Origin: Candidatus Omnitrophota bacterium
GTDB taxonomy: Bacteria; Omnitrophota; Gorgyraeia; JABMRN01; RBG-13-46-9
Length of the DNA stretch: 64,000 nt
Assembly (NCBI GenBank): GCA_030605095.1
Contig: JAUWBJ010000001.1
Coordinates: forward strand, 10,942 to 74,941
Direction of reading: 5' to 3'
Part shown: piece after piece, positions 6,714-39,856 of the stretch
Numbering within the stretch: the first letter of the stretch is position 1
Layout: every line of letters starts with the position of its first letter
The notes under the pieces: generated by a model
Told to the model about the DNA's origin: nothing
Databases searched by the model: none
The model's input: only the letters and a program-made list of their open reading frames with translations
Made by a program: the position numbers and the translations under genes

Positions 6714-7333
6714 AAGAGAAAATTATTGCGAATCTCAAGAAAATGACAGACGTTCTCTCAGAGATGGTCGGCCTTGTATATCAGGGGTTCATAGAAAATG
6801 ATGCTCATTATTTAAACAGGGCGTTAAACAAAGAGCGCATAATGGATGATTTTGAAAAGGAGATAACTGCCTCCATTGTCCAGGTTTTCAAGACGCTGGA
6901 TAAAAAAAAGCAAAAAGAATTTGTTTTACTTGAACAAACTGCGCAAAATATAGAACGAATGGGCGATGAATTACGTTCTTTAATGGAACGCATAGAAATT
7001 AAGATCGCAGAAAACCTTTTCTTTAGTGAAATGGGCGTAGAGCAATATAAAGAAACTTTTGAAAAAATGAGAAAATCTGTAAACCTGACTATAGAGTTTT
7101 TAAATGAAGATAAACACGAACTTTTAAAAATGATATTAAAAAATGGCGATGAAATTAAAGAAACAGTTGAGAAATATAGAACAGAACATCTTGAGCGTCT
7201 GGCAAAGGGTATTTGCGAGCCGCGCGCCGCGAACATGTATTTTGACATGCTTGATTTTACGGGGAATATTGCTCGCCATTGCACTAATATAGCGAGAATC
7301 TATAAGGAAAAATATGGATTTAGAATTTTTTAG
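6710..7333 (+). CDS. PhoU-domain-like protein embedded in hydrogenase operon
   Basis: 207 aa, alpha-helical, C-terminal NIARHCTNIARIY resembles the PhoU ERIGDHATNIAE motif. Confidence 0.4.
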   Translation: MKEKIIANLKKMTDVLSEMVGLVYQGFIENDAHYLNRALNKERIMDDFEKEITASIVQVFKTLDKKKQKEFVLLEQTAQNIERMGDELRSLMERIEIKIAENLFFSEMGVEQYKETFEKMRKSVNLTIEFLNEDKHELLKMILKNGDEIKETVEKYRTEHLERLAKGICEPRAANMYFDMLDFTGNIARHCTNIARIYKEKYGFRIF

Positions 7334-8969
7334 ATTTGATAATCTATCCAATTTTGTAGGGATATTCATAGTCTTCTTTTCTTTGCTGATTATCATTTAT
7401 TCTTTTGGTTTCATGCGCAAAAGAAAAGGGCTCGCCGGCTACTACCTATATATAATCCTTACGTTGATTGCCTCCTTAGGAGTTGTCTTTTCCAATAACC
7501 TCATTTTACTTATGGTATTCTGGGGATTTTTAGCGTTTCTTCTATATTTGTTGATTGGTTTCGGACAAAAGAAAAACACACATTATACGGCTAAGAAAGC
7601 GTTTATAATAATTGGCGGTAGTGATGCTCTTATGCTGTTGGGATTGGCTTTAATCTGGCGTCTTGCAGGAACACTCCAGATGGATAAATTGAGCATAGCG
7701 CTAAATACAAAACCTGCTATCTGGGCCTATCTTTGTCTGGCAATAGGCGCATTTGCTAAAGCAGGGGCTATGCCTCTACATACATGGGTTCCTGATACTG
7801 CCGAAGATGCGCCTACTCCTGTAACGGCATATTTGCCCGCATCTTTAGATAAGCTTCTTGGAATATACTTCTTGGCCAGGATTTCTATGAATGTTTTCCA
7901 GATGAATAACGCTATGAATACGTTTTTGATGGCATTAGGCAGCTTCACAATTGTTGCCGCAGTTATGATGGCACTTATTCAGCATGATTTAAAGAGACTT
8001 TTAGGCTATCACGCCGTAAGCCAGGTCGGATATATGGTGTTAGGAATAGGGACCGGTAACCCGATAGGTATAGCCGGTGGATTGTTTCATATGCTAAACA
8101 ATGCTATATATAAATCGTGCCTCTTTTTGGGCGGTGGCGCGGTAGAGAAAAAGGCCGGAACCACCGATTTAAAGAAATTGGGCGGGTTTGCTAAAATTAT
8201 GCCGATTACCTTTGTTACGTTTTTAATCGCTTCGTTCGCAATATCAGGCGTTCCGCCTTTTAACGGCTTTGCTTCAAAATGGATGGTCTATCAGGGAGTG
8301 ATAGAGACAGCCAAAAATGGCGGGCATCTGTGGATAATATGGCTTGTTGCCGCTCTTTTTGGTAGCGCCCTTACCCTTGCGAGTTTTATGAAACTCGTGC
8401 ACACTGTATTTTTGGGCCAGCCCTCAAAAGCCCACAGCCAAGAGCCAGGAGCTCGCAGTCCTAAAGAAACCGGGCCGACCATGTGGATTCCAACCGTTAT
8501 CTTAGCGGCGTTATGTATTATTTTCGGCGTTTTTGCTTACAGAGTACCACTAAGGATGTTTATCTTACCAAGTTTAAATCAGGCTGTGACCTTTTCCGGC
8601 ACGTGGTTTTCGAGCCTCGCCGGTATTCTGTTATTGGCAGGGATTGCAATTGGTTTTATAATTTATCTTTTAGGTTCAGCAGTTAAGACAAGAGAGGCGC
8701 AAATATTTGTGGGCGGAGAAATTCTAAGCGATGTACCACAAATGAGGGTTTCAGGAGTCGAATTTTATAATACAATAAAAGAAATCGGTATATTAAAAAT
8801 TATCTATAGATTAGCAGAAAAGAAGGCATTTGATATTTATGAGCTGTTAAAGAAATTCTGCTTCATATTTACCAGGATATTACGCTTTATCCATACGGGG
8901 ATTTTGACTACATATCTTATCTGGATATTATTGGGAATGATAATTCTGTTTTTCGTTTTAATGAGATAA
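7314..8969 (+). CDS. Mrp antiporter MnhA/D-like subunit (NuoL/MbhH-like)
   Basis: 551-aa polytopic protein with HTWVPDTAEDAPTPVTAYL (NuoL/M/N proton-pumping antiporter signature). Confidence 0.85.
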   Translation: MDLEFFRFDNLSNFVGIFIVFFSLLIIIYSFGFMRKRKGLAGYYLYIILTLIASLGVVFSNNLILLMVFWGFLAFLLYLLIGFGQKKNTHYTAKKAFIIIGGSDALMLLGLALIWRLAGTLQMDKLSIALNTKPAIWAYLCLAIGAFAKAGAMPLHTWVPDTAEDAPTPVTAYLPASLDKLLGIYFLARISMNVFQMNNAMNTFLMALGSFTIVAAVMMALIQHDLKRLLGYHAVSQVGYMVLGIGTGNPIGIAGGLFHMLNNAIYKSCLFLGGGAVEKKAGTTDLKKLGGFAKIMPITFVTFLIASFAISGVPPFNGFASKWMVYQGVIETAKNGGHLWIIWLVAALFGSALTLASFMKLVHTVFLGQPSKAHSQEPGARSPKETGPTMWIPTVILAALCIIFGVFAYRVPLRMFILPSLNQAVTFSGTWFSSLAGILLLAGIAIGFIIYLLGSAVKTREAQIFVGGEILSDVPQMRVSGVEFYNTIKEIGILKIIYRLAEKKAFDIYELLKKFCFIFTRILRFIHTGILTTYLIWILLGMIILFFVLMR

Positions 8970-9518
8970 ATGATGATTGAGCTATACATACTTTTATTAT
9001 TTATGATTGCGGCTGCCTTTATTGCAGTCCAGATAAAGGACCTTCTCTCTTCCATTATTGCCGTGGGAGCAGCAGGGCTTGCTTTATCGGTAGCGTTTTT
9101 AATCTTAAAAGCGCCGGACCTGGCTATTACTCAATTAGTAGTAGAAATTCTTTGTCTTATTATCTTAATCAGGGCTACAGTAAAAAGAGACACTGCATCA
9201 ACCAAAGATTTCCGCGGCTTTCTTACCACAATAGTGAGCCTGGTGTTTATCGGGGTATTTCTCTTCTTTGCCTATCTTGCCTTAAAGGAGCTGCCTGATT
9301 TTGGCAAGCCCATAATGAGGGTAGCCGCCAATTTCATCGAGATGGGACAGGCAAAGACCGGTGCCAGCAATTTAGTTAGCTCAGTGATTTTAGATTTCCG
9401 TGCTTATGATACATTGGGTGAAGCAACAGTGCTATTTACAGCGGTAATCGGCACATTAGCGATTTTGCGCCGAATCGGGCGTAAGAAAAAAGATGAGGTC
9501 GTTAAAGAAAATGACTAA
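8970..9518 (+). CDS. Mrp antiporter MnhB-like subunit (N-terminal-type)
   Basis: Membrane protein with MnhB-domain-like hydrophobic segments; position in Mrp gene order. Confidence 0.6.
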   Translation: MMIELYILLLFMIAAAFIAVQIKDLLSSIIAVGAAGLALSVAFLILKAPDLAITQLVVEILCLIILIRATVKRDTASTKDFRGFLTTIVSLVFIGVFLFFAYLALKELPDFGKPIMRVAANFIEMGQAKTGASNLVSSVILDFRAYDTLGEATVLFTAVIGTLAILRRIGRKKKDEVVKEND

Positions 9519-9966
9519 AAATAGCAAAGGCATGACTTTAATTGTCAAGACCATCACCCGGCTTACAGTTGGGCTGATACTTTTATATGGTATCTATATA
9601 GTGCTGCACGGACATCTCACGCCTGGAGGAGGATTTGCGGGCGGAGTGATAATTGCTCTTTCATTTGTCCATCTGATGTTGGCTTTTGGCAAAGAGGTAG
9701 CTTTAAAGAAGGTTTCCCGTCCCATAGCCAGTTTATTTGAGAGTATCGGTGCGCTTATGTTTCTTTCTATTGCGGTAATTGGCTTTGTTGGAGGATATTT
9801 CTTTTTGAACTTTTTTATAAATAAAGGTACCCCATTTAAACTTTTCAGTGCAGGGATTATGCCTTTATGTAATATCGCTATCTCATTTAAGGTGGGAGCA
9901 GGTCTTTTTGCTATATTTGTGGCTCTGGTGTTATTAAAGATAGATTCGGAGGATAAAGAAAGATGA
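9511..9966 (+). CDS. Mrp antiporter MnhB-like subunit (C-terminal-type)
   Basis: HGHLTPGGGFAGG motif typical of MnhB/MbhF; ATG 9511 overlaps the upstream stop by 8 nt (track start 9493). Confidence 0.7.
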   Translation: MTKNSKGMTLIVKTITRLTVGLILLYGIYIVLHGHLTPGGGFAGGVIIALSFVHLMLAFGKEVALKKVSRPIASLFESIGALMFLSIAVIGFVGGYFFLNFFINKGTPFKLFSAGIMPLCNIAISFKVGAGLFAIFVALVLLKIDSEDKER

Positions 9967-10298
9967 TTTACCTTTTGTGCCTTGTGCTTTTTTCTATCGG
10001 ATTATATTGTATCCTGGTAAAAAGAAACTTGATTAAGATCATTATAGGCTTAGTAATAATGGAATATGCCGTGAATCTTGCATTTATCTTGTTCGGTTAT
10101 CGGCTTGGCGGCCGGGCGCCAATACTGGCCCAGGACCAGACAATAAAGAATATGGTTGACCCTTTACCGCAGGCTTTAGTTTTAACAGCCATAGTTATCG
10201 GACTGGCAACTACTGCTTTAATAGTGGCAATCGCAGTCAGAATTTATGATAGATATAAGACTTTTGACATAACAAAGATAAGGAGACTGAAGGGTTGA
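9963..10298 (+). CDS. Mrp antiporter MnhC-like subunit (NuoK-like)
   Basis: 111-aa three-TM protein, NuoK/MnhC-like. Confidence 0.75.
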   Translation: MIYLLCLVLFSIGLYCILVKRNLIKIIIGLVIMEYAVNLAFILFGYRLGGRAPILAQDQTIKNMVDPLPQALVLTAIVIGLATTALIVAIAVRIYDRYKTFDITKIRRLKG

Positions 10299-11788
10299 AT
10301 ATTATTCCTCTATTTGTAGTTATACCGTTAGGCAGCGCATTTTTGATTTCTCTTTTGGGTAAGAGGATAAAAGGTTTGCCCGATTCCTTAGCCAATTTAG
10401 GAACACTTCTTATGGCAGGCCTTTCTATATATTCTATATTTTTAATCAAAGAGGTAGGTGTTCAGGTGTATAAGGTAGGCGGATGGACTCCACCAATAGG
10501 TATTTCTATGGTCTTGGATGGCTTAAGCTCTTTTATGTTAGTTACGGTTAATTTGACCGCCTTTTTGATAACGCTATTTTCCATAAGCTATATGAAAAAA
10601 TACACAGCCAAATGGAAATTTTATACGCTATTTATGCTCATGCTGGGGGGCATGAACGGCGTGATTATTACAGGAGATATGTTTAACCTCTTTGTCTTTT
10701 TAGAAATTGCTGCGATTGCGAGCTATGCCCTGGTGGCTTTTGGCATTGAGCACGAGGAGCTCGAAGCGTCATTTAAGTACATGGTAATGGGAGGGGTTGC
10801 ATCACTTTTCATTCTTCTTGGAATTGCGCTTTTATATAGCCTTACTTCAACATTAAATATGGCTGATATGGGCCGAGTTTTAACTGCCCAGGGGCCAAGC
10901 AAATTAGTTCTATTTGTATCAGTACTATTCCTGGTGGGATTTGGCCTAAAGGCGGCGATAATGCCATTTCATGCCTGGCTTCCGGATGCCCATCCTTCAG
11001 CGCCGGCGCCAATTTCAGCTATGCTTTCCGGGCTTTTGATTAAGGTGCTGGGTATCTATGCATTGATGAGAATATTTTTCAATGTGTTAGGAGCACAACC
11101 CGCAATTTTGGATATTTTATTAGTCTTAGGGACTATATCTATGGTAGCGGGAGCACTCCTGGCGATAGGGCAGGAAGATATAAAAAGGATGCTGGCATAT
11201 TCCAGCATCAGTCAGATAGGATATATAGTTTTAGCAATGGGAATATGGACACCGCTTGCTATATTGGGCGCACTTTTCCATCTATTCAATCATGCCATAT
11301 TTAAATCGCTTTTGTTTTTAAATTCCGGGGCAATAGAATATTCGACGGGAACGAGAGATTTAAGAGAGATGGGTGGATTAAATGCCCGAATGCCGCTAAC
11401 CGGAACCACAAGTTTAATCGGCTCTATGTCAATATCCGGAATACCGCCTCTAAGCGGTTTTTGGAGTAAGTTGATTATTATCTTTGCCGCTATACAAAGC
11501 GGCCATTTTGTGCTGGCATTGATAGCTATTCTGGTGAGCGTTATAACATTGGCATATTATCTGAAACTGCAAAGATACGCCTTCTTTGGAAATCTGCAAG
11601 ATAAATGGAAGCATATTTTAGAAGTGCCGTTTACTATGAAATTGTCGATGGTTATATTAGCCTTAATTTGTATAATGGCGGGTGCGCTTCTGCTTCCCGG
11701 CGTAAGAGAGATATTTCTTAAACCGGCGCAAGATGCTTTATATGCTGGAAAAGATTATGCCGCTACTGTATTTGAGAGTATAAGATGA
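10295..11788 (+). CDS. Mrp antiporter MnhD-like subunit (NuoM-like)
   Basis: HAWLPDAHPSAPAPISAML antiporter signature, 497 aa. Confidence 0.85.
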   Translation: MNIIPLFVVIPLGSAFLISLLGKRIKGLPDSLANLGTLLMAGLSIYSIFLIKEVGVQVYKVGGWTPPIGISMVLDGLSSFMLVTVNLTAFLITLFSISYMKKYTAKWKFYTLFMLMLGGMNGVIITGDMFNLFVFLEIAAIASYALVAFGIEHEELEASFKYMVMGGVASLFILLGIALLYSLTSTLNMADMGRVLTAQGPSKLVLFVSVLFLVGFGLKAAIMPFHAWLPDAHPSAPAPISAMLSGLLIKVLGIYALMRIFFNVLGAQPAILDILLVLGTISMVAGALLAIGQEDIKRMLAYSSISQIGYIVLAMGIWTPLAILGALFHLFNHAIFKSLLFLNSGAIEYSTGTRDLREMGGLNARMPLTGTTSLIGSMSISGIPPLSGFWSKLIIIFAAIQSGHFVLALIAILVSVITLAYYLKLQRYAFFGNLQDKWKHILEVPFTMKLSMVILALICIMAGALLLPGVREIFLKPAQDALYAGKDYAATVFESIR

Positions 11789-13682: not shown

Positions 13683-13841
13683 AAGGGGACGTTTCACTTT
13701 GCTATAATTATTTACAAACAAAGAAGTTGTAACATGCCATTTTCCAAAATCAAAAGGATAAAGGATATACTTAAAAGTGGAAAATGAGCGTTTATATCGT
13801 ATTGCAATATAAGGAGTTATGACAAAGTGAAACGTCCCCTT
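13683..13841 (+). promoter_or_regulatory. 19-bp perfect long-range inverted repeat bracketing the NuoI-like/hycI intergenic region
   Basis: AAGGGGACGTTTCACTTTG (13683-13701, 6 nt after the upstream stop) pairs with CAAAGTGAAACGTCCCCTT (13823-13841), which contains the hycI GTG start. Confidence 0.6.
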
Positions 13842-14294
13842 ATTTTCCAAGAGATATTGAGAGGTAGAGTTGTTATCGTCGGCATAGGTAATATAATAAA
13901 AGGTGATGATGGGTTTGGGCCGGCGCTCATTAAGAGATTGAATGGAAAAATAAAAGCGGTTTGCATCGATGCAGGCAGCGCGCCGGAGAACTACACGGGC
14001 GTTATTACAAAACAGAATCCAGATACGATATTGCTTGTTGATGCCGTACATTTGGATTTGCCAGGTGGCCGATACGAAATTTTAAAGCCAAAAGATATAT
14101 TAAAAAGCGGTTTTACCACCCATGATATTTCACCCAGGATGTTCATCGAATATCTTGAGAGCCAGACCAGGGCAAGAATTTTTCTACTGGGAGTCCAACC
14201 GCAAAATATCTCTTTAGGAGATGAGATGTCCGATAGCGTTAAAATGGCGCTTGCTGAGATAGAAAGCTTGATAAAGGAGACAATCAATGCATGA
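13827..14294 (+). CDS. hycI: hydrogenase maturation endopeptidase (HycI/HyaD family)
   Basis: GIGNIIKGDDGFG motif; GTG start with AAGGAG RBS 10 nt upstream. Confidence 0.85.
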   Translation: MKRPLIFQEILRGRVVIVGIGNIIKGDDGFGPALIKRLNGKIKAVCIDAGSAPENYTGVITKQNPDTILLVDAVHLDLPGGRYEILKPKDILKSGFTTHDISPRMFIEYLESQTRARIFLLGVQPQNISLGDEMSDSVKMALAEIESLIKETINA

Positions 14295-14529
14295 GACACA
14301 TCTAATACAACCGATAATAGAAGGCATATCCCAACACGCTAAAAAAGAAGGCGCAAAAGCCGTGTCAAAAGTAAGGCTTAAAATCGGTGAGTTTACAGGC
14401 GTTAAAGAGGATTCGTTCAAAGAGACTTTTTCTTCTCTGGCGAAGGGGACAATGCTTGAGGGTAGTGAACTTGAATTAACGTTTTTCCCGGGTTCCAGAG
14501 TCGAAGTTATATCCTTTGACATAAAATGA
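14287..14529 (+). CDS. hypA: HypA-like Ni-binding N-terminal domain protein (no Zn-finger region)
   Basis: Starts MHETHL (HypA MHE Ni-binding N-terminus) but is 80 aa with no cysteines. Confidence 0.6.
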   Translation: MHETHLIQPIIEGISQHAKKEGAKAVSKVRLKIGEFTGVKEDSFKETFSSLAKGTMLEGSELELTFFPGSRVEVISFDIK

Positions 14530-15572
14530 AAACAATTCTTGCAATAGGCGCTGATATAAAAAATAGATTTCTTCTCGCAAAGGGAAAGAATTTGCATTTT
14601 GGCCCTGATATAGGCGACTTAAGCGATGCTTCCAATTATGAACTTTTCAAGAAGGAAATACAGAGAGCCACAAAAAATATTAAGCCAGATATTGTTACAT
14701 GCGATTTACATCCCGGTTATTTTTCCACGAAATTCGTTAAAGAACATAGCCAAAAGCCCGTCCAGCATCACCACGCCCACATAGCCAGCGTGCTCGAGGA
14801 GCATAATTTAAAAAAACCTGTAATTGGGGTAGCTTTCGACGGCACAGGCCTTGGCACGGATGGGAATATATGGGGCGGCGAGTTTCTTATGGTTGAAAAA
14901 AAAGGATTTAAGCGCCTTGCCCATTTCAAATATATAAAGATGCCGGGCGGCGACAAGGTTGTCAGCGAGCCGTGGAGAATGGTTTTAAGCATACTGGGCG
15001 AGAGAGGGGCCCCTTTCATAAAAAGCGTTAAAAGAGAAGATAAGGAATTAATTCTTTCTATGTGCGCAAAAAATATAAATTCACCACTAACATCAAGCAC
15101 CGGCAGGTTATTCGATGCGGCAGCAGCACTTCTTGGCATATGTGAGCGTGCTTCGCGTGAAGCAGAAGGGCCTATAAAACTTGAGGCAATGTGTAAAGAT
15201 GGAGTAGGGGAAAGTTACGAATTTGGAATATCAAAAGATGATGGTCAATACATAATTGATATGGAACCTTTGTTTTTGAATATGGTTAAGGACTTAAAGA
15301 GAGGAAAAGATAAACGAGTTATCGCGACGAAATTCCATAATTCCATGGTTTTGATTATTCTCAAAACCGTTAAAAGGTTATCAAAGGATACGGGTATTAA
15401 GGATATCGCGCTCTCGGGGGGCGTATTTCAAAATAGATTCTTAAGGACAAAAGCGATAAAGACGTTATTATCTTCGAAATTTAATGTTTTTATTAATGAT
15501 AAAACACCTGTAAACGATTTTAATATATCGTTAGGACAATTCCATGTGTCTTGCTGTACCGGCAAAAATTAA
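14526..15572 (+). CDS. hypF: HypF-like carbamoyltransferase, Kae1/YgjD-like C-terminal domain only
   Basis: 348 aa matching the HypF C-terminal domain (GVAFDGTGLGTDGNIWGGEF, ALSGGVFQN); no acylphosphatase, Zn-finger or YrdC domains. Confidence 0.7.
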   Translation: MKTILAIGADIKNRFLLAKGKNLHFGPDIGDLSDASNYELFKKEIQRATKNIKPDIVTCDLHPGYFSTKFVKEHSQKPVQHHHAHIASVLEEHNLKKPVIGVAFDGTGLGTDGNIWGGEFLMVEKKGFKRLAHFKYIKMPGGDKVVSEPWRMVLSILGERGAPFIKSVKREDKELILSMCAKNINSPLTSSTGRLFDAAAALLGICERASREAEGPIKLEAMCKDGVGESYEFGISKDDGQYIIDMEPLFLNMVKDLKRGKDKRVIATKFHNSMVLIILKTVKRLSKDTGIKDIALSGGVFQNRFLRTKAIKTLLSSKFNVFINDKTPVNDFNISLGQFHVSCCTGKN

Positions 15573-17771: not shown

Positions 17772-17787
17772 TTTTTATAAAAACCCT

Positions 17788-17816
17788 TGACAAAACCTCC
17801 AAAATAGTGTATAGTT
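17788..17816 (+). promoter_or_regulatory. sigma70-like promoter TTGACA-N17-TATAGT upstream of fur-family gene
   Basis: Perfect -35 hexamer and near-consensus -10 with 17-nt spacer, about 38 nt upstream of ATG 17854. Confidence 0.6.
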
Positions 17817-17853
17817 GATAATGGAAACCGTTTTCAATAAGGAGCTGACAAAG

Positions 17854-18330
17854 ATGCCAAGAGGACATGGAAGAGGATTTGGAATGGGGCCAGGGTGGTG
17901 GCACGGAAGGTTTAGAGGGTGCGGATACAGAATAACCATACCGCGTCAGGAGATACTCAAGGTTTTAAACCAAACAGAAGAACACCTGAGCGCTGAAGAA
18001 ATATATCTTAGAGTACATAAGGTTTATCCGTCAGTAGGGCTTACGACGGTTTATCGGACACTTGAGGTTTTAGCTGATATGGGACTTGTGTTTAGACTCG
18101 AGTTCGGCGACGGAAAAGCGAGGTACGAATTAGTCGAAGGGCCCAAAGGAAAGCTGCACCACCACCATTTAGTTTGCACTGATTGCGGAAGGGTAATCGA
18201 TTATACAGATTTTATTAGCGAGGAGAAGGAATTACTTGATAAGACAGAAAAGGCACTTTCAAGCAGGCATAATTTTAAGATTTTAAATCACCAGATTCAT
18301 TTTTACGGTTTGTGCAATAAGTGCAAATAA
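17854..18330 (+). CDS. Fur-family metalloregulator with Gly/Arg-rich N-terminal extension
   Basis: Fur DNA-binding helix region (ITIPRQEILKVL), HHHH and CxxC...CxxC metal sites; ATG 17854 with AAGGAG RBS; N-terminus MPRGHGRGFGMGPGWW resembles the N-termini of the two neighbouring DUF5320-like proteins (MPGGNGTGP, MPFGDGTGP). Confidence 0.8.
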   Translation: MPRGHGRGFGMGPGWWHGRFRGCGYRITIPRQEILKVLNQTEEHLSAEEIYLRVHKVYPSVGLTTVYRTLEVLADMGLVFRLEFGDGKARYELVEGPKGKLHHHHLVCTDCGRVIDYTDFISEEKELLDKTEKALSSRHNFKILNHQIHFYGLCNKCK

Positions 18331-18348
18331 TTTTTTTTTCTTAATTAA

Positions 18349-18363
18349 TGAAAATGATTTTCA
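18349..18363 (+). promoter_or_regulatory. 7-1-7 palindrome TGAAAATGATTTTCA (Fur/PerR-box-like)
   Basis: Perfect inverted repeat between fur-family gene and DUF5320 gene; same architecture as TGATAATnATTATCA Fur boxes. Confidence 0.5.
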
Positions 18364-18391
18364 ATAACAATTATAAGAGGAGGTGATTAAC

Positions 18392-18793
18392 ATGCCAGGA
18401 GGAAACGGAACAGGACCAGTTGGATTAGGTCCAATGACAGGAGGTGCTCGCGGTTATTGCGCAGGTTACCCTGTGCCGGGCTACATGAACCCCATTCCCG
18501 GAAGAAGAGGAGGTTGGTCTGGTCGTGGCTGGGGCCGAGGTCGTGGTTGGGGCCGTGGCAGAGGCAGAGGTTTCGGCTGGGGAGGAGCCGCTTATCCTTA
18601 TGCTTATGGAGACCCATATTATGCGTCCCCATATGCATACCCATATGGAGGATATCCATATGGCGCTGAGGTAAATCCTCAGGAAGAAGCACAAATGCTT
18701 AAGGAGCAAGCCAAGGCCATGCAGGACGATATTAAGTCCATAAACGACCGCATAAAAGAGCTGGAATCTGCTGCAAAGGCCGAGAAAAAATAA
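18392..18793 (+). CDS. DUF5320-like Gly/Arg/Tyr-rich protein with C-terminal coiled coil
   Basis: MPGGNGTGPVGLGPMTGGARGYCAGY N-terminus, RGWGRGRGWGRGRGRG repeats, C-terminal charged helix; AGGAGG RBS. Confidence 0.7.
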   Translation: MPGGNGTGPVGLGPMTGGARGYCAGYPVPGYMNPIPGRRGGWSGRGWGRGRGWGRGRGRGFGWGGAAYPYAYGDPYYASPYAYPYGGYPYGAEVNPQEEAQMLKEQAKAMQDDIKSINDRIKELESAAKAEKK

Positions 18794-18810
18794 CTAAGCA
18801 GGGAGGAAAT

Positions 18811-19212
18811 ATGAAGACGGCAATCTCTACAGACGGAGATTATGTATCTGCACATTTCGGAAGGTGCCCCCATTTTACTATTTTGGATATAGAAAATGGA
18901 GAAATCGTAAAAAAAGAGATCATTCCCAACCCGGGTCATTCCCCGGGATTTATCCCTCAATTTCTGCATGAAAAAGGCGTTAAAGCCATCATAGCAGGGG
19001 GAATGGGTATGCGCGCAACAGGATTTTTCAGTGAATTGGGGATAGAGGCAATTGTCGGAATTAGTGGTAAAATAGACGATGTAATTACTCAACTTCTCAA
19101 AGGCACTTTAAAAGGCGGAGAAAGTTTATGTAAACCCGGTTCGGGCAAAGGATATGGTGTAGAGAAGACAGAATGCGAACATCCGGAAGAAAAGGAAGGT
19201 GAAGAAAAATGA
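18811..19212 (+). CDS. NifX/NifB-C-terminal-like (dinitrogenase FeMo-cofactor-binding family) protein
   Basis: MKTAISTDGDYVSAHFGRCPHFTILD... typical Nitro_FeMo-Co fold N-terminus. Confidence 0.7.
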   Translation: MKTAISTDGDYVSAHFGRCPHFTILDIENGEIVKKEIIPNPGHSPGFIPQFLHEKGVKAIIAGGMGMRATGFFSELGIEAIVGISGKIDDVITQLLKGTLKGGESLCKPGSGKGYGVEKTECEHPEEKEGEEK

Positions 19213-19580
19213 AAATATGCGTAACTTCACAAGGGGATAATTTAGATTCGCAAGTTGATCCCCGGTTTGGAAGATGTCAATATTTTATTATCGTTGATAC
19301 AGATACACTTGAATTTGAGGCGATACAGAATCCGAATATCGATGCTATGGGTGGAGCCGGCATTCAGTCGGGACAACTTATAGCAGGGAAGCAAGTTAAA
19401 GCGGTTTTAACAGGCAATGTTGGCCCGAATGCATTTCAGACATTGCAGGCTGGCGGCGTTGAAGTTATTGTTGGTGTTTCCGGAAGCGTGAAAGAAATTG
19501 TAGAAAAATATAAAAAAGGCGAATTAAAACCCACTGATAACCCGAGCGTAGGTAGAAAATTCGGAATGGGACAAAAATAA
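19209..19580 (+). CDS. NifX/NifB-C-terminal-like protein (second copy)
   Basis: MKICVTSQGDNLDSQVDPRFGRCQYFIIVD; paralog of preceding gene. Confidence 0.7.
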   Translation: MKICVTSQGDNLDSQVDPRFGRCQYFIIVDTDTLEFEAIQNPNIDAMGGAGIQSGQLIAGKQVKAVLTGNVGPNAFQTLQAGGVEVIVGVSGSVKEIVEKYKKGELKPTDNPSVGRKFGMGQK

Positions 19581-19595
19581 TATCGGAGGTGTGTT

Positions 19596-19829
19596 ATGCC
19601 ATTTGGAGATGGGACAGGTCCATTAGGCCAAGGGCCGGGTACAGGAAGAAGAGGTATGGGTAGAGGCCGCGGACGTGGCAGGATGGGTGGTAATCGACCG
19701 GGCGCAGGACCGGGCGGATTCTGCATATGCCCTAATCCAGACTGCGGTGCAAAAGCAGCTCACGGGGTCGGTGTTCCCTGTTATAGCGTAAATTGTCCAA
19801 AATGTGGAGCAAAGATGGTCAGAGGATAA
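19596..19829 (+). CDS. DUF5320-like Gly-rich N-terminus fused to Zn-ribbon
   Basis: MPFGDGTGPLGQGPGTGRRGMGRGRGRGR then CICPNPDCG...CPKCG. Confidence 0.6.
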   Translation: MPFGDGTGPLGQGPGTGRRGMGRGRGRGRMGGNRPGAGPGGFCICPNPDCGAKAAHGVGVPCYSVNCPKCGAKMVRG

Positions 19830-19835
19830 CAATAT

Positions 19836-20660
19836 ATGATTATTTCTGTAGCCAGCGGTAAAGGCGGAACGGGCAAAACAACCGTTGCTGTAAATCTGGC
19901 ATTGTCAATACCAAATGTCCAGTTGCTGGATTGTGACGTAGAAGAACCCAACGCTCATATATTTATAAAACCCTCAATAAAAAACAGAATGCCTGTATTT
20001 ATCCTCGTTCCCGAAGTTGATAAAACCAGATGCAACTTTTGCGGGAAATGCAAGGAAGTCTGTGCTTATAATGCAATAGCCGTATTAAAGAAAGATGTTT
20101 TAGTATTTAAGGAGTTATGCCATGGATGTGGCGCCTGTGCCTACCTTTGCCCCGAAGGCGCGATAAAAGAAGTTAATAAAGAGATAGGTTTTGTGGAGAT
20201 TGGCGAAAAAGATAATCTCCAATTTGCGCATGGCAAGCTCAAAATTGGTGAAGCAATGTCACCGCCCCTTATCAAGGCGGTGAAACAATATATGAATCCC
20301 ACCAGAACGGTTATCGTTGACATTCCACCCGGCACATCGTGCCCTGTCATTGAAGCAATAAAAAGAAGTGATTATTGCGTTTTAGTTACTGAACCTACCC
20401 CTTTTGGTCTATACGACCTTATTCTAGCGATTGAAGTCATAAGAAAACTTAAAATTCCTTTCGGCGTTGTTATCAATCGAGCTGATTTAGGGAATAGAAA
20501 AACAGAAGATTACTGCCATAAGGAAAATATACCTATACTTATGAAAATTCCTTTCAAGAAAGAAATAGCCAAAGCTTATTCCAGAGGCGAAATTATTATC
20601 GAAACTTTGCCGGAATATAAAAAGAGTTTTCAACAATTATTTAGTAAAATTGGAACATGA
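19836..20660 (+). CDS. MinD/ParA-family P-loop ATPase with 2x[4Fe-4S] ferredoxin insert
   Basis: SGKGGTGKTT Walker A (deviant), CNFCGKCKEVC and CHGCGACAYLCP motifs. Confidence 0.8.
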   Translation: MIISVASGKGGTGKTTVAVNLALSIPNVQLLDCDVEEPNAHIFIKPSIKNRMPVFILVPEVDKTRCNFCGKCKEVCAYNAIAVLKKDVLVFKELCHGCGACAYLCPEGAIKEVNKEIGFVEIGEKDNLQFAHGKLKIGEAMSPPLIKAVKQYMNPTRTVIVDIPPGTSCPVIEAIKRSDYCVLVTEPTPFGLYDLILAIEVIRKLKIPFGVVINRADLGNRKTEDYCHKENIPILMKIPFKKEIAKAYSRGEIIIETLPEYKKSFQQLFSKIGT

Positions 20661-20670
20661 TGGAAAGTAT

Positions 20671-21537
20671 ATGAAGCAAATTGTCGTAATAAGCGGTAAG
20701 GGCGGTACAGGCAAAACAGTCATTACGGGCGCTTTCGCCGCTTTAGCCAAGAATAAAGTTATGGCAGATTGCGATGTAGATGCCGCCGATTTACATCTTT
20801 TGCTTAAGCCAAAGATAAAAGAAAGAAATATATTTAAAAGCGGTGTAACGGCAGTTATTGACAAAAGTAAATGTACGGAGTGTGGTAAGTGTATCAAAAT
20901 TTGTCGGTTTAATGCCATAAACAAAGATTTTGTTGTGGACCCTATTTCTTGTGAAGGATGCGTTTTTTGTAGTTTTGTCTGTCCCGCGGAAGCCATTAAA
21001 ATGGAAAAAAATGTATCTGGAGAGTGGTTCATTTCGGATACCAGATTCGGCCCGATGGTTCACGCAAAACTTGGTATTGCCGAAGAAAATTCAGGAAAGC
21101 TGGTAAGCCTTGTCAGACAAAAGGCAAAGGAGATAGCCGAAAAGAGAAAATGTGACTGGGTTATCATCGATGGCGCGCCGGGGATAGGGTGTCCGGTAAT
21201 CGCCTCACTTACAGGTATTGATTGCGCATTGGTTATAACAGAGCCGACTTTATCGGGTTTACACGATGCCGATAGAGTTATAGGCGTGGCCAGGCATTTT
21301 GGAATCTTAGTTAAATTGGTTATAAATAAATATGATTTGAATATCGACATCACAAAGAAAATAGAGAACTATTGCCGGGATAACGATATTCAAGTTCTTG
21401 GTAAAGTCATTTTTGATAAATCTATAGTAAAAGCAATGGTAGAGGGAAAAACAATAATAGAATACAGAGACGGAAAGGCAAAGGAAGAGATCGCTGCAAT
21501 ATGGGACAGATTGCAAGAAATAAAAGAGAAGAGATAA
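20671..21537 (+). CDS. MinD/ParA-family P-loop ATPase with 2x[4Fe-4S] ferredoxin insert (second copy)
   Basis: SGKGGTGKTV, CTECGKCIKIC, CEGCVFCSFVCP; ATG 20671 (track start 20650). Confidence 0.8.
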   Translation: MKQIVVISGKGGTGKTVITGAFAALAKNKVMADCDVDAADLHLLLKPKIKERNIFKSGVTAVIDKSKCTECGKCIKICRFNAINKDFVVDPISCEGCVFCSFVCPAEAIKMEKNVSGEWFISDTRFGPMVHAKLGIAEENSGKLVSLVRQKAKEIAEKRKCDWVIIDGAPGIGCPVIASLTGIDCALVITEPTLSGLHDADRVIGVARHFGILVKLVINKYDLNIDITKKIENYCRDNDIQVLGKVIFDKSIVKAMVEGKTIIEYRDGKAKEEIAAIWDRLQEIKEKR

Positions 21538-21538
21538 A

Positions 21539-22249
21539 ATGGATAGAAGTTTATTAACAATAGTTTATGATAACCGATTATATGATAAAAGCCTGAAATC
21601 AGGATGGGGTTTTTCTTGTTTTATCGAACATTCAAACAAAAAGATTCTTTTTGATACCGGAAATGATTCAGAGAAACTGACTTTTAATTTAAAGAACCTG
21701 GAAATAAAATCTGAAGACTTAGACGCTATAGTTTTGTCGCATAATCATTGGGACCATACTGGCGGCCTTCAGGCCGTGCTTGGAAAAAACAAAGATTGCA
21801 AACTTTATTTTGGAAAATCCTATCCGGCTAGTTTTCAAGAGAAGATTAAATCACAAAGATTAAATTTTATTTTGGTTGAAGATATGCGCTCAATTACTGA
21901 AGGAATATTTGTCGGTCCGGAAATGGGAGGTTTTGGACCACGGGAAATTTCCTTAACAGTGCAAACAGATAAAGGTTTAGTTATAATTACAGGTTGCGCG
22001 CATCCGGGAATTTTAAAGATGGTGCGAGCGATTAAGAAAGAATTAAATAAGGATATTTATTTAGTCTTAGGCGGTTTTCATCTTGAATTTTCTCTGGGGT
22101 TAAATACAATAGTGAAAGGGCTTAAAAAAATAGGGGTTAAAAGAGCTGCTCCTTGCCATTGCACAGGCGAAAGGGCAATCAGTCTATTCGAGGAGAAATT
22201 CGGGAAAGATTTCATTAAAGTTGGCGGGGGATTAAAATTAGAGATTTGA
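21539..22249 (+). CDS. MBL-fold metallo-hydrolase
   Basis: HNHWDHTGG metallo-beta-lactamase motif. Confidence 0.7.
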   Translation: MDRSLLTIVYDNRLYDKSLKSGWGFSCFIEHSNKKILFDTGNDSEKLTFNLKNLEIKSEDLDAIVLSHNHWDHTGGLQAVLGKNKDCKLYFGKSYPASFQEKIKSQRLNFILVEDMRSITEGIFVGPEMGGFGPREISLTVQTDKGLVIITGCAHPGILKMVRAIKKELNKDIYLVLGGFHLEFSLGLNTIVKGLKKIGVKRAAPCHCTGERAISLFEEKFGKDFIKVGGGLKLEI

Positions 22250-22256
22250 GAATAAA

Positions 22257-23174
22257 ATGAGGACGTATTTAGATTGCATACCGTGTTTTTTCAAACAGGC
22301 GCTTGAGGCAGCCAGGCTTGCCGGCGCAGGCCCAAGGACACAAAAGAAAATAGTAAATGAACTAGCCAAAGTTTTACCAAAATTTTCTTTAGCTTCATCT
22401 CCGCCTGAAATGGGTCGAATTGTTTATGGATTGGTCAGGAAGATAACCCATCAAGAGGATCCTTATAAAAAAATAAAAGCCAAAAGCAATAAGCTTGCTC
22501 TCAGACTTTATAATAAGCTCAAGGATAAGGTGCGGCATTCTAATAATAGATTATTGACAGCGCTTGAATTAGCTATTGCCGGAAATATAATTGACTATGG
22601 GGTAAAAAACTCCTTAGACGTGGATAAAGAGCTGAAAAGAATTTTAAACGAAGAGAATAAAGCTATTAAAAATGAGAGCAAAGAGCTATTTAATTATTCC
22701 GAATTTAAACATGCCTTGCGTAATGCCGAAACTATTCTCTATTTAGGCGATAACGCAGGAGAAACAGTTTTTGACAGAATTTTAATCGAAGAAATAAAGA
22801 GATTGCATAAAAATAAAAGAATCATTTATGCTGTCAAAGAGAGGCCTGTAATTAACGACGCTTTAATTGAAGATGCGAAAAAATGCAGTATTGATAAAGT
22901 AGCGGAGGTGATCTCAAGCGGATTAGACACGCCCGGCACAGTCCTTCCTTTTTGTTCAAAGAAATTTTTGAAAATTTATAAAGAAGCAGATATACTTATC
23001 AGCAAAGGCCAGGGAAACTTTGAGGCCTTATCCGATGAGAAAAAGGCGATTTTCTTCCTGTTTATGGCTAAGTGCCCGGTAGTTGCCAGAGATATAGGAT
23101 GTAACGTTGGAGATATAATCTTACTTTATAGCAAACATAGAAGAAATTGGATGAAATTGAAACTCGGGAGGTGA
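22257..23174 (+). CDS. DUF89 / ARMT1-like damage-control phosphatase family protein
   Basis: N-terminal YLDCIPCF, conserved DNAGE..D region typical of DUF89. Confidence 0.6.
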   Translation: MRTYLDCIPCFFKQALEAARLAGAGPRTQKKIVNELAKVLPKFSLASSPPEMGRIVYGLVRKITHQEDPYKKIKAKSNKLALRLYNKLKDKVRHSNNRLLTALELAIAGNIIDYGVKNSLDVDKELKRILNEENKAIKNESKELFNYSEFKHALRNAETILYLGDNAGETVFDRILIEEIKRLHKNKRIIYAVKERPVINDALIEDAKKCSIDKVAEVISSGLDTPGTVLPFCSKKFLKIYKEADILISKGQGNFEALSDEKKAIFFLFMAKCPVVARDIGCNVGDIILLYSKHRRNWMKLKLGR

Positions 23175-23823: not shown

Positions 23824-23853
23824 TTGACACAACCCTCGCTGTGTGTTACTATT
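23824..23853 (+). promoter_or_regulatory. sigma70-like promoter TTGACA-N18-TACTAT upstream of nikR
   Basis: Consensus -35, near-consensus -10, about 35 nt upstream of ATG 23888. Confidence 0.55.
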
Positions 23854-23887
23854 TACAAAAACGTAACACCATGACAGGAGAAAAACT

Positions 23888-24304
23888 ATGCCGAAACTAG
23901 TGCGCTTCGGGATATCGCTGGAAAAAGAACTTCTCGCAAAATTCGACAAACACATAAGCAAAAAGAAATACCAAAATCGCTCTGAAGCTATAAGAGACCT
24001 TATTAGAGAAGAAATTGTTAAGACAGAGTGGTTAAAAGATAAAGAGGTTGCCGGAACAATTACCCTTGTTTATGACCACCACAAGAGGGAACTGATAAAC
24101 AAACTGACCGATATCCAACATGATTTCCACGAACTTATTATTTCTACCCAACATATTCACCTCGACCACGATAATTGTTTAGAGATCATCGCCGTTAAAA
24201 GTAAACCTAAAGAAGCCCAGAAGTTAGCCGATACCTTAAAATCGATTAAAGGTGTAAAACACGAAACTTTAAGTATGTCGAGTACGGGAAAGGAGATTAT
24301 ATGA
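23888..24304 (+). CDS. nikR: nickel-responsive regulator NikR
   Basis: RHH N-terminus (NRSEAIRDLIRE) and HIHLDHDNCLEI nickel-site motif matching NikR HxHxxHxxC. Confidence 0.9.
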   Translation: MPKLVRFGISLEKELLAKFDKHISKKKYQNRSEAIRDLIREEIVKTEWLKDKEVAGTITLVYDHHKRELINKLTDIQHDFHELIISTQHIHLDHDNCLEIIAVKSKPKEAQKLADTLKSIKGVKHETLSMSSTGKEII

Positions 24305-38969: not shown

Positions 38970-38995
38970 TATAACGCCTTTAAGGAAAAAGAGAT

Positions 38996-39856
38996 ATGTG
39001 GAATTACACAGAAAAGGTAATAGAGCATTTCCGAAACCCGCGCAATGTAGGTGAAATTAAAAATCCCGATGCGATAGGGGAAGTGGGTAATATTATCTGC
39101 GGAGATGCCCTGCGCCTTACATTACGTATAGATAAAAAGACGGATAAAATTATAGATGCCAAGTTCCAGACCTTTGGCTGCGCAAGCGCCATTGCCGCTT
39201 CTTCAGCGCTTACCGAAATGGTTAAAGGCATGACAATCGAGAAAGCCTCTTCGGTTACCAACAGGGATATCGCTAATTATCTCGGTGGGTTACCGAATGA
39301 GAAAATGCATTGTTCTGTTATGGGTATGGAAGCCCTGGAGAAGGCAATTGATAATTATAGAGGGGCGCCTACAAAAAAGGAGATGATAGGTAAAGAAGAG
39401 ATTCTGTGTAAGTGTTTTAGCGTAACGGATAAAAAGATAATCCGCGCTATAAAAGAAAATAATTTAAAGACAGTGGAAGAGGTAACTAATTATACCAAAG
39501 CAGGAGGCGGATGCGGTAAATGCAAACCCGAGATAGAAAAATTGCTTAAGGAATTCTGGAGTAAGGAAGCTACGAAAATCAGGCGCCCGAAAAAAGATCT
39601 GGCAGGGAAAAAATCCACCAATTTAGAGCGAATATCTTTGATACAGGATACGATAGAAAGAGAAATACGGCCGAAGCTCAAGGCCGACGGGGGAGATATA
39701 GAGCTTGTGGATATAGACCGTAATAAGGTTTATGTAAAATTTTTAGGTACGTGCCTGGGGTGCCCGTCGACAGGAGTCACTTTAAAGAGCCTGGTAGAAT
39801 CGAAATTAAAGGAGTTTGTTGAAGGAGATATTGTGGTGGAAGAGGTTAAGGAATGA
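38996..39856 (+). CDS. nifU: NifU (IscU-like N-domain + BFD 2Fe-2S + Nfu C-domain)
   Basis: GDALRL...CASAIAAS scaffold Cys, central CxC 2Fe-2S, C-terminal CLGCPS. Confidence 0.85.
   Translation: MWNYTEKVIEHFRNPRNVGEIKNPDAIGEVGNIICGDALRLTLRIDKKTDKIIDAKFQTFGCASAIAASSALTEMVKGMTIEKASSVTNRDIANYLGGLPNEKMHCSVMGMEALEKAIDNYRGAPTKKEMIGKEEILCKCFSVTDKKIIRAIKENNLKTVEEVTNYTKAGGGCGKCKPEIEKLLKEFWSKEATKIRRPKKDLAGKKSTNLERISLIQDTIEREIRPKLKADGGDIELVDIDRNKVYVKFLGTCLGCPSTGVTLKSLVESKLKEFVEGDIVVEEVKE

Follow-up and report, generated by a model that had tools for sequence, protein, structure and literature searches.

A Fur-family regulator sharing an N-terminal motif with proteins of its predicted ORP-like operon in Candidatus Omnitrophota

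The ORP complex of Desulfovibrio (Orp3, Orp4, Orp5, Orp8 and Orp9) is rich in Fe-S, with reported links to cell division and Fe-S maturation (PMC6345978, PMC8359166). The orp operons are the entire regulon of OrpR, a σ54 activator reported to be confined to deltaproteobacteria, which senses through a [4Fe-4S] cluster and provides a precedent for a dedicated local regulator; in D. vulgaris, these operons respond to redox potential (PMC8359166). Here, we analyze an operon in 64,000 nucleotides (nt) of DNA from a Candidatus Omnitrophota bacterium (contig JAUWBJ010000001.1, assembly GCA_030605095.1), hereafter the window, in which a gene for a Fur-family regulator is followed by genes for a DUF5320 protein, two Nitro_FeMo-Co proteins (NifX1 and NifX2), a protein of 77 amino acids (aa) and two MinD/ParA-type ATPases with inserted ferredoxin domains (MinD1 and MinD2). 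An earlier note on this DNA had named the Fur, DUF5320, Nitro_FeMo-Co and MinD/ParA-ferredoxin families, and Pfam/hidden Markov model (HMM) scans agree. The same note held that these components have no assigned function, but the ORP system of Desulfovibrio has been described, although its physiological role is still unsettled (PMC6345978, PMC8359166). Our whole analysis is computational, from sequence and comparison, with families assigned by Pfam and NCBIfam scans of the open reading frames (ORFs) in the window.

Fur represses the suf Fe-S assembly operon in Escherichia coli. In the type Ib partition systems ParG/ParF and omega/delta, the flexible N-terminal tail of the repressor contacts and stimulates the adjacent ParA/MinD-family ATPase and modulates operator binding. 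ParG and omega are ribbon-helix-helix proteins that also bind the centromere, and their tail acts through an arginine finger. A different kind of tail is found in IssA of Pyrococcus furiosus, a thioferrate iron-sulfur storage protein with a NifX-like domain (IPR003731) modelled on MTH1175. This tail of 70 aa (11 Pro, 15 Gly, seven cationic and 14 aromatic residues, one Cys) is proposed to wrap anionic thioferrate (PMC5524996).

By its encoded families, the core gene set of the operon corresponds to the ORP system. MinD1 and MinD2 are two paralogous ~30 kDa MinD-type ATPases with two [4Fe-4S] motifs each, as in Orp3/Orp4, and are matched by the described architecture (PMC6345978). Indeed, CxxCxxCxxxC(P) occurs twice in each ATPase, and MinD1 has a deviant Walker A motif, SGKGGTGKTT. 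NifX2 is a single-domain Nitro_FeMo-Co protein like Orp8, as assessed by its matches to MTH1175 (1eo1, E=4e-21) and to D. gigas ORP (2wfb, E=1.3e-19, residues 2-110). The small, Cys-rich 77-aa protein lies in the position of Orp5 ([2Fe-2S], Dde_3197), to which it is likened by place and Cys content. In addition, both systems have a dedicated local regulator, with targets apparently limited to the cluster, and both are restricted to anaerobes. On the other hand, Pfam/NCBIfam scans found no Mrp/NBP35 domain in the operon, which lacks that part of MrpORP (Orp9) and has only the stand-alone, Di-Nase-like NifX1, whose best NCBIfam match is to positions 265-365 of MrpORP, the C-terminal Di-Nase domain (99 bits, cut-off 450). 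Whereas orp consists of two divergent operons under σ54, IHF and OrpR, the window has one unidirectional operon with a σ70 promoter and Fur-type operators. It also has an additional DUF5320 gene, and the tail that its regulator has in common with structural proteins is not described for OrpR. The operon products may form a physical complex, for which the NifX+DUF5320 fusion in L201/L202 offers indirect support.

The likeness to IssA concerns the DUF5320 protein and NifX2. The DUF5320 protein consists of an N-terminal module, a middle rich in RG, Trp, Tyr and Pro, and a C-terminal helical tail (coiled coil). Its middle (72 aa: 10 Pro, 20 Gly, eight Arg+Lys, 16 aromatic; a single Cys in the entire protein) matches the IssA tail in composition, and NifX2 matches MTH1175. 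However, the tail-like segment in the window belongs to a protein of its own, which has an N-terminal signature and a coiled coil in addition, and the operon adds ATPases; a tail fused to NifX is seen only in some lineages (L201/L202). Moreover, IssA is induced by abundant iron and sulfide, whereas Fur repression here may run in the opposite direction. With the classical Fur/suf pair, the operon shares the Fur fold, His/Glu regulatory ligands, CxxC pairs, predicted 7-1-7 operators over the promoter/start, probable autoregulation and putative Fe-S targets, but its regulon appears to be local rather than global, and the N-terminal tail is unmatched in any solved Fur. It differs from ParG/omega by the Fur DNA-binding fold of the regulator and the Fe-S domains of the ATPases, and a tail contact here is a proposal from the genes.

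A Fur subfamily and its two operators

The PF01475 match of the regulator spans positions 3-121 of the 121 in the profile, and the PDB entries most similar to the protein are Fur structures (9ire, 1e-29; V. cholerae 2w57, 2e-26). The residues aligned to H33, E81, H87-H90, E108 and H125 of V. cholerae Fur are invariant in 116 homologs, and so are two CxxC pairs (four Cys, structural Zn). Nevertheless, the protein reaches none of the NCBIfam equivalog cut-offs for Bacillus-type Fur (128/220 bits), E. coli-type Fur (102/146), PerR (95/180) or Zur (38/167), which places it in a distinct subfamily. A search of a 90%-clustered protein collection returned 2230 relatives at E<=0.001; the best 120 of these, which were used for motif counts, are 66-82% identical, the named ones being mostly from Omnitrophota or Nitrospirae. 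Ahead of the usual fold, the subfamily carries the tail motif MPxG[DN]GTGP..WW.GRFRGCGYR. Alignments to PDB entries start at about residue 21, which leaves the tail without a solved counterpart. In an AlphaFold2 (AF2) model (pLDDT 77) with the Fur helix/strand order, residues 1-12 are disordered and are followed by a short WWHGRFR helix where Fur α1 normally lies.

Gene order was established by searching the ORFs of each locus with the window's own proteins. The loci compared are the best 80 of 577 pattern-matched stretches encoding a relative of the regulator, with one genome per species. Almost every one of them has the order Fur > DUF5320 > NifX1 > NifX2 > (77-aa) > MinD1 > MinD2 > (MBL/ARMT1/membrane), and together they span at least eight phyla (Omnitrophota, Nitrospirota/Thermodesulfovibrionales, Atribacterota, WOR-3, TA06, Cloacimonadota, Elusimicrobiota, Eiseniibacteriota and others). 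The gene neighbourhood is thus kept in related genomes. DUF5320 directly follows fur in 65 of the 73 loci with room for it, and NifX1 does so in most others. Presence was counted in the 45 loci with at least 6 kb downstream: MinD1 is found in 42, MinD2 in 42, DUF5320 in 42, NifX2 in 41 and NifX1 in 39, and the less constant members are the 77-aa protein (28), the MBL-fold hydrolase (27), ARMT1 (9) and the membrane protein (6). When sampling was reversed, starting from homologs of the 77-aa protein, the upstream regulator was Fur in 4/6 contexts and DUF134 in 2/6. Many loci that are 65-75% identical to the Omnitrophota-like regulator, among them L003, L004, L005 and further 'binchicken' records, carry the titles 'uncultured Planctomycetia', 'Clostridia' or 'Ignavibacteriaceae', and these taxonomic labels look unreliable.

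Between fur and the DUF5320 gene lies a perfect 7-1-7 palindrome, TGAAAATGATTTTCA (18349-18363), which the earlier note had proposed as a site for the regulator. It is exact and the sole zero-mismatch copy in the 64 kb; looser copies with 2-3 mismatches are at chance level (20 in the window vs 14 expected). In 63 of 79 loci, its core recurs with two mismatches or fewer in the 150 nt that follow fur, as compared with 2.5% of random 155-nt windows, which makes it a well-conserved candidate operator. At related loci this operator, O2, begins 17-28 nt past the fur stop codon. A position weight matrix (PWM) was built from these fur-DUF5320 spacer sites and used to scan the 64 kb. Just two matches reached 10 bits (0.28 expected in shuffles), O2 and a second site before fur, O1; further regulon members were not found in the window at this threshold. 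O1, which is absent from the earlier note, has an equivalent of at least 15 bits in the same place in 67/77 loci. In all 67 of these loci, a σ70 promoter with 10-12 of 12 consensus matches (TTGACA in 65/67) lies in front of O1, its end separated from the operator by 2-3 nt or, in some loci, by 8 nt; random 66-nt windows mostly have 6-8 matches. Conserved 7-1-7 boxes therefore precede both fur and the DUF5320 gene, which are the putative targets.

The Bacillus Fur box in the Baichoo-Helmann model is a 7-1-7 element, TGATAAT-N-ATTATCA. The operators described here have this architecture, which is typical of the Fur family, with TGAAAAT-N-ATTTTCA as their core, TTAATGAAAATGATTTTCATTAAC as their consensus and conserved AT-rich flanks (TTAAT...ATTAA). 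The window box differs from the Bacillus box by one symmetric substitution, with A/T at positions 4 and 12.

We place the fur start at ATG 17854, preceded by the ribosome-binding site (RBS) AAGGAG (17839-17844), and not at TTG 17815 as the earlier note had it, because the upstream codons overlap the conserved operator O1. In the public gene call for a protein identical to this one (P0001, 169 aa, METVFNKELTK-MPRG...), the start is set 11 codons too far upstream, and the reading frame runs through O1 and the RBS (17821-17853).

The same-strand genes downstream are tightly packed, with intergenic gaps of 2-18 nt or overlaps. The location of O1 before fur implies autoregulation, and we infer that a single operon is read from the fur promoter, with O1 occluding both promoter and start site. 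O2 is possibly a second site, acting cooperatively or as a road-block. A separate DUF5320 promoter was considered and rejected, since the lone candidate in the window (TTTACG-18-AATAAT) is weak and not conserved. An intrinsic terminator between fur and the DUF5320 gene was likewise rejected: the scan found none, and the T-run that follows fur has no hairpin. This run (T5-9, in many cases with TATA in front) stops exactly 9 nt short of the O2 core in 41/61 loci; folding of the 61 loci revealed no hairpin enrichment before it (mean minimum free energy of -3.0, with -2.2 for shuffles). It is recognizable neither as a terminator nor as a promoter, and may represent an extra half-site or a bend. 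In four Nitrospirota loci (L014:8330-8729, L043:840-1245, L046:535-940 and L066:8875-9276), a Fur-type box precedes a gene for a 122-aa CGGC-domain protein (PF08821) situated just upstream of fur, so that the operon there begins one gene earlier.

Taken together, these sequence comparisons define a large Fur subfamily that appears to be dedicated to ORP-like clusters and was not previously described. Literature searches returned nothing on a Fur regulator of NifX/MinD-ferredoxin clusters, on the function of DUF5320 or on the motif strings considered below.

An N-terminal module common to the regulator and two neighbours

The earlier note had pointed out that the regulator, the DUF5320 protein (given there as 134 aa, actually 133 aa) and the 77-aa protein begin with nearly the same Gly-rich motif. 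Their N-termini are alike beyond composition, as assessed by 5000 composition-preserving shuffles for each pair. Within the window, p is 0.004 for Fur vs DUF5320, 0.011 for Fur vs the 77-aa protein and 2e-4 for DUF5320 vs the 77-aa protein. It is 4e-4 for the consensus Fur vs the consensus DUF5320, and <2e-4 for the P0002 Fur (MPRGYGRGFGMGPPWWHGRFRGCGYR) vs a DUF5320-like protein of L202 (MPNGYGRGFG...PPW...GRGRG..CGY). Profile-profile comparison with hhalign gave P=7e-12 over 29 columns for the N-termini of DUF5320 and the 77-aa protein, P=2e-3 over 9 columns for Fur and DUF5320, and P=4e-4 over 9 columns for Fur and the 77-aa protein.

The motif is kept to different degrees in the three families. 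In DUF5320, M1, P2, D5, T7, G8 and P9 are kept in 69-76 of 76 sequences, and the signature opens 113/120 members of the 77-aa family. Most of the 120 best Fur homologs begin MPxG.G.GP.WWHGRFRGCGYR, and their tails have MP in 98/120, WW in 120/120 and Cys in 90/120; MPxx[DN]GxGP is found in 39/120, of which 26 have MPxx[DN]GTGP. The window Fur has a degenerate form, MPRGHGRGFGMGP. Among the 6794 ORFs of the loci, spurious ORFs included, we counted 136 instances of a loosened motif, and its carriers are 74 DUF5320, 28 77-aa and 27 Fur proteins, five further small in-cluster proteins and two unrelated ORFs. At the DNA level, an MPxx[DN]GTGP start reads ATGCCN-N6-GAYGGNACNGGNCC, i.e. seven N following ATGCC. 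Synonymous codons and third positions vary freely in the Fur, DUF5320 and 77-aa families, which argues that selection acts on the protein, and an RNA-level origin of the motif was rejected on this ground. Extra small MPxxDG[TK]GP proteins (L008:11089-11307, L035:11863-12114, L065:12125-12340, L051:10492-10662) have a hydrophobic/amphipathic C-terminus or a Lys/Gly-rich stretch, and represent further architectures of the N-terminal module.

The 77-aa protein combines this module with a Cys-rich domain. Although the window copy has no Pfam/NCBIfam match at E<=0.01, precomputed PF17253 matches exist on many of its 467 homologs, and C43, C45, C50, H56, C62, C67 and C70 (six Cys and one His) are invariant in the family. 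In its AF2 model, residues 1-40 are disordered and residues 41-77 are folded (pLDDT about 80). Foldseek returned nothing significant (best E=0.8) and the top non-significant matches are all zinc-ribbon modules, so that a zinc-ribbon character of the modelled C-terminal domain is plausible.

Natural fusions and an alternative regulator bear on what the tails may contact. A NifX+DUF5320 fusion in Dehalococcoidia (L202:1727-2293) lacks only the first 18 profile positions, which correspond to the N-terminal signature. This protein and its counterpart in L201 (L201:7155-7742) consist of a NifX2-like domain, a GM/RG-rich segment and a DUF5320 coiled coil, an IssA-like architecture. A third protein (L008:11321-11830) fuses DUF5320 to a 2x[4Fe-4S] ferredoxin. 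In some sister clusters, from Dehalococcoidia and others, Fur is replaced by a DUF134 (UPF0251) protein (L201:5830-6297, L202:528-1001, L209:3950-4417), whose σ70 region 4-like helix-turn-helix fold is unrelated to Fur. As many as 84 of 120 long-form DUF134 homologs (P0241-P0360) end in RG/W/Cys tails, e.g. GWGRGYGPGRGWRRGRCFRGGRR, with the pattern GRG..RC(C)R. These tails are chemically similar to that of Fur, but they are C-terminal and without MPxG[DN]GTGP. In two of three sampled cases (L210 and L211), DUF134 adjoins a lone Nitro_FeMo-Co gene, without ATPases and without DUF5320. Hence, RG/aromatic/Cys tails track NifX-like genes, and MPxG[DN]GTGP is seen, in this small sample, only alongside MinD-ferredoxin ATPases.

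Sister clusters contain accessory genes for a class I S-adenosylmethionine (SAM) methyltransferase (37 loci), NifU_N/IscU (19), radical SAM proteins (16), EncFtn-like proteins (8) and ZIP (5), as well as FeoAB, a separate Mrp/NBP35 (PF10609) gene and a cysteine desulfurase fusion. By their families, these genes point to an iron/Fe-S theme. The metal-cluster assembly/delivery link suggested in the earlier note would fit this set, in particular NifU/IscU, FeoAB, the EncFtn-like proteins, cysteine desulfurase and Mrp/NBP35. The methyltransferase gene (37/80 clusters) usually lies between the 77-aa gene and MinD1, and the window operon is without one. Examples are found at L006:12068-12679 and in L206-L208; in L010 (3456-4433) the methyltransferase is fused to a NifU_N scaffold domain, and L208 has a SAM synthetase within the cluster. 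Elsewhere in the window, an ORF at 38984-39856 has a NifU_N-like segment (phmmer E=3e-16 vs the cluster-associated NifU of L006).

Readings of the shared tail

The explanation that we favour, at somewhat better than even confidence, is that of one autoregulated operon for an ORP-like Fe-S machinery, controlled by a Fur-subfamily repressor whose tail docks it onto that machinery. It rests on the gene families, their order over at least eight phyla, two operators with a promoter, the Fur ligands and the shared disordered tail. In this model, the metal-loaded repressor, probably with Fe2+, would bind O1 and O2 and thereby repress its own gene along with the rest of the operon, and a shortage of iron or Fe-S would lead to derepression, as with Fur on suf in E. 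coli. The operon products would assemble into an ORP-like complex, in which the NifX-like proteins would carry an inorganic cluster, Fe-S or related. DUF5320 and the 77-aa protein would bind this anionic cargo with their disordered, cationic RG/aromatic segments, in the manner proposed for the IssA tail, and the ATPases would drive cluster assembly or hand-over. The most speculative step is that the repressor tail would plug into the same machine, and provide feedback on machine state beyond free-metal sensing; the shared tail suggests that the repressor may sense the machine itself, and the repressor tails of ParG/ParF and omega/delta are a precedent. The docking targets of the tail could be the NifX-like carriers, the cargo or the ATPases, and the tail may have a split role, in which the RG/W/Cys part contacts NifX/cargo and the MPxG[DN]GTGP part contacts the MinD-type ATPases. 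We link the RG tail to NifX because of the NifX+DUF5320 fusion, the IssA-like middle of DUF5320 and the DUF134 tails beside NifX genes.

Several points weigh against this explanation. Fur and DUF5320 share only about 9-14 alignable N-terminal residues (P=2e-3 to 4e-4), for which reason the Fur tail is not a PF17253 member, and Fur is only a marginal match (E=0.02) to an HMM built from the DUF5320 N-terminus. The full MPxx[DN]GxGP is present in about a third of the subfamily and an Aureabacteria member is without the signature, which is therefore not essential for the regulator. No conserved promoter was found before O2, the 7-9/12 matches there equalling the random control, and the conserved T-run beside O2 is without explanation in the operon model. 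The metal specificity, direction of regulation and protein contacts are all deduced from sequence. Finally, if the products were to store iron/sulfur like IssA, repression by holo-Fur would run the wrong way.

A bolder version, which we regard as possible but unlikely, gives the tails a common chemistry. RG/aromatic/Cys tails of the same kind as in IssA, DUF5320 and the 77-aa protein would have been acquired separately by two unrelated regulator families, N-terminally in Fur and C-terminally in DUF134. They would serve as 'cargo-mimic' sensors that read the loading of the NifX carrier or bind anionic Fe-S species, with MPxG[DN]GTGP coupling the regulator to the MinD-type ATPases.

We give an equally low rating to direct sensing, in which the tail would need no protein partner because it would be the binding site for an Fe-S cluster, a thioferrate-like anion or a metal, and the regulator would report Fe-S status, not free Fe2+. 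The heme of CooA has an N-terminal Pro as a ligand, and a [2Fe-2S] cluster has been reported on E. coli Fur. The tail of the regulator offers a free Pro2 amine and Arg, together with the Cys and WW counted above, and analogous GRG..RC(C)R tails occur on the DUF134 regulators. The RG/aromatic/single-Cys chemistry of IssA is that proposed to wrap thioferrate (PMC5524996), and OrpR senses via a [4Fe-4S] cluster (PMC8359166). However, a lone Cys cannot ligate a cluster alone, it is replaced by H/G/A/Y/S/R/E in a quarter of the members, and the tail is predicted to be disordered.

Rather less probable is that the tail is a DNA-binding arm, comparable to an AT-hook, for the AT-rich flanks or minor groove of the operators, its likeness to DUF5320 being convergence or the relic of a duplication of the 5' end of the adjacent gene. 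The conserved AT-rich flanks and T-run would fit an arm, as would the presence of RG-rich tails on two unrelated DNA-binding families and the location of the Fur tail in the place of helix α1, beside the winged helix; O1 and O2, each with an RBS before an MP... start codon, fit an old segmental duplication. Such an arm would nevertheless leave unexplained why a signature starting at Met1 is found on two proteins without DNA-binding domains, and why it is nearly confined to these clusters, and MPxG[DN]GTGP is not cationic.

The chances are lower again for a PerR-like regulator that senses redox or peroxide and tunes an oxygen-sensitive Fe-S machine, as OrpR does. PerR has the same His/Asp ligand set and D. 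vulgaris orp operons follow redox potential (PMC8359166), but the PerR models (95 bits) score below the Fur models (128), and among solved structures and curated families the closest relatives are Fur. In addition, a single symmetric substitution separates the operator from the Fur 7-1-7 box, and sister clusters contain iron-uptake and Fe-S assembly genes.

It is very unlikely that the cluster acts together with the hyp genes in accessory maturation or delivery for the neighbouring [NiFe]-hydrogenase, a link that the earlier note had raised. The window operon does follow HycI, HypA, HypF (C-terminal half), HypC, HypD, HypE and a membrane-bound hydrogenase module, with NikR just downstream, and the same arrangement is found in L003, L052 and L206. 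However, hyp genes are upstream in only 2/46 loci, plus the close relative L206, and NikR is just upstream of fur in 3/46; the operon carries a promoter and operators of its own, the hyp genes have no such box in front of them, and the ORP system exists in organisms without such linkage. We therefore rejected hyp/hydrogenase linkage as a general feature, and the adjacency appears to be a local accident, common only to close relatives such as L206. Chance likeness between low-complexity Gly-rich sequences, to which the shortness of the matching stretch and the marginal HMM score would lend themselves, is scarcely credible and largely refuted by the sequence statistics, since shuffles that preserve composition give p=0.004 to <2e-4 and the motif always begins at Met1, is conserved over phyla while synonymous codons vary, and is nearly confined to these clusters among the 6794 ORFs.

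Coordinates, surroundings and significance

The features of the operon are listed in Table 1. Its final gene is probably that for the His-rich membrane protein, which has the His clusters HVFHPIH, HLHICIIEH and SHAAHVF, and may be a metal transporter. Directly 3' of the operon lies nikR (RHH + NikR_C; region 23824-24304, start 23888), with a separate promoter-like site at 23824-23852 (TTGACA-17-TACTAT with TG).

Table 1. Positions of the regulatory elements and genes of the predicted operon in the window
Feature	Position	Strand	Evidence or remark
σ70-type promoter TTGACA-17 nt-TATAGT	17787..17815	+	11/12 consensus matches
Operator O1 TAATGGAAACCGTTTTCAATA	17819..17839	.	PWM 26.2 bits; between -10 element and fur RBS
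Fur-family repressor, 158 aa, N-terminal tail MPRGHGRGFGMGPGWWHGRFRGCGYR	17854..18330	+	PF01475 E=3e-34
T9 run directly 3' of fur stop codon	18331..18339	+	T5-9 run conserved at loci
Operator O2 TAATGAAAATGATTTTCAATA, perfect 7-1-7 core 18349-18363	18346..18366	.	PWM 30.4 bits
DUF5320 protein, 133 aa	18392..18793	+	PF17253, 87 bits (cut-off 27), profile positions 1-99
NifX1, Nitro_FeMo-Co protein 1	18811..19212	+	PF02579 E=9e-23
NifX2, Nitro_FeMo-Co protein 2, orange-protein/MTH1175-type carrier	19209..19580	+	PF02579 E=2e-25
77-aa protein: DUF5320-type N-terminal module, RG-rich linker, Cys6His mini-domain	19596..19829	+	467 homologs
MinD/ParA-type ATPase 1 (MinD1), inserted 2x[4Fe-4S] ferredoxin domain, Orp3/Orp4-like	19836..20660	+	CbiA, ParA, Fer4
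MinD/ParA-type ATPase 2 (MinD2), inserted 2x[4Fe-4S] ferredoxin domain	20671..21537	+	CbiA, Fer4; alternative start TTG 20650
MBL-fold hydrolase, 2 nt past MinD2 gene	21539..22249	+	PF00753 E=1e-14
ARMT1/DUF89 damage-control phosphatase-like protein	22257..23174	+	PF01937 E=1e-68
His-rich polytopic membrane protein, 211 aa	23178..23813	+	family match absent in Pfam/NCBIfam

Upstream of the operon lies a locus for a group-4-like membrane-bound hydrogenase, and hypC, hypD and hypE come after it. The locus includes Mbh/Mrp-type membrane modules at 7314-11788 (Proton_antipo_M twice, MbhD/MbhE, MnhB) and a HycI protease at 13827-14294. HypA, in the region 14287-15572, has 80 aa and covers profile positions 1-68 of 112, and HypF consists of its C-terminal Kae1-like half only (348 aa), without the acylphosphatase, zinc-finger and YrdC parts. 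Because the short HypA and HypF are also found in L206, they are not an assembly artefact.

The ORP gene set is already known, and DUF5320 and Fur are catalogued families. What is new, as read from the sequences, is the ORP-dedicated Fur subfamily, its two predicted operators and promoter, the tail shared by repressor and putative targets, and the chemically similar DUF134 tail. Clusters of ORP, NifX-like and MinD-ferredoxin genes are widespread in anaerobes, and their role is unsettled after 15 years of work on Desulfovibrio. Fur-type control, together with the IscU, FeoAB and desulfurase genes of sister clusters, points to iron/Fe-S economy, and the shared tail offers a handle toward identifying the ligands of DUF5320 and of the NifX-like carriers. 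If the tails were to mimic cargo, a metalloregulator would sense the cofactor pool, which is distinct from binding the free ion. Should the repressor indeed read the state of the machine via its tail, the Fur family would gain a new principle of sensing.

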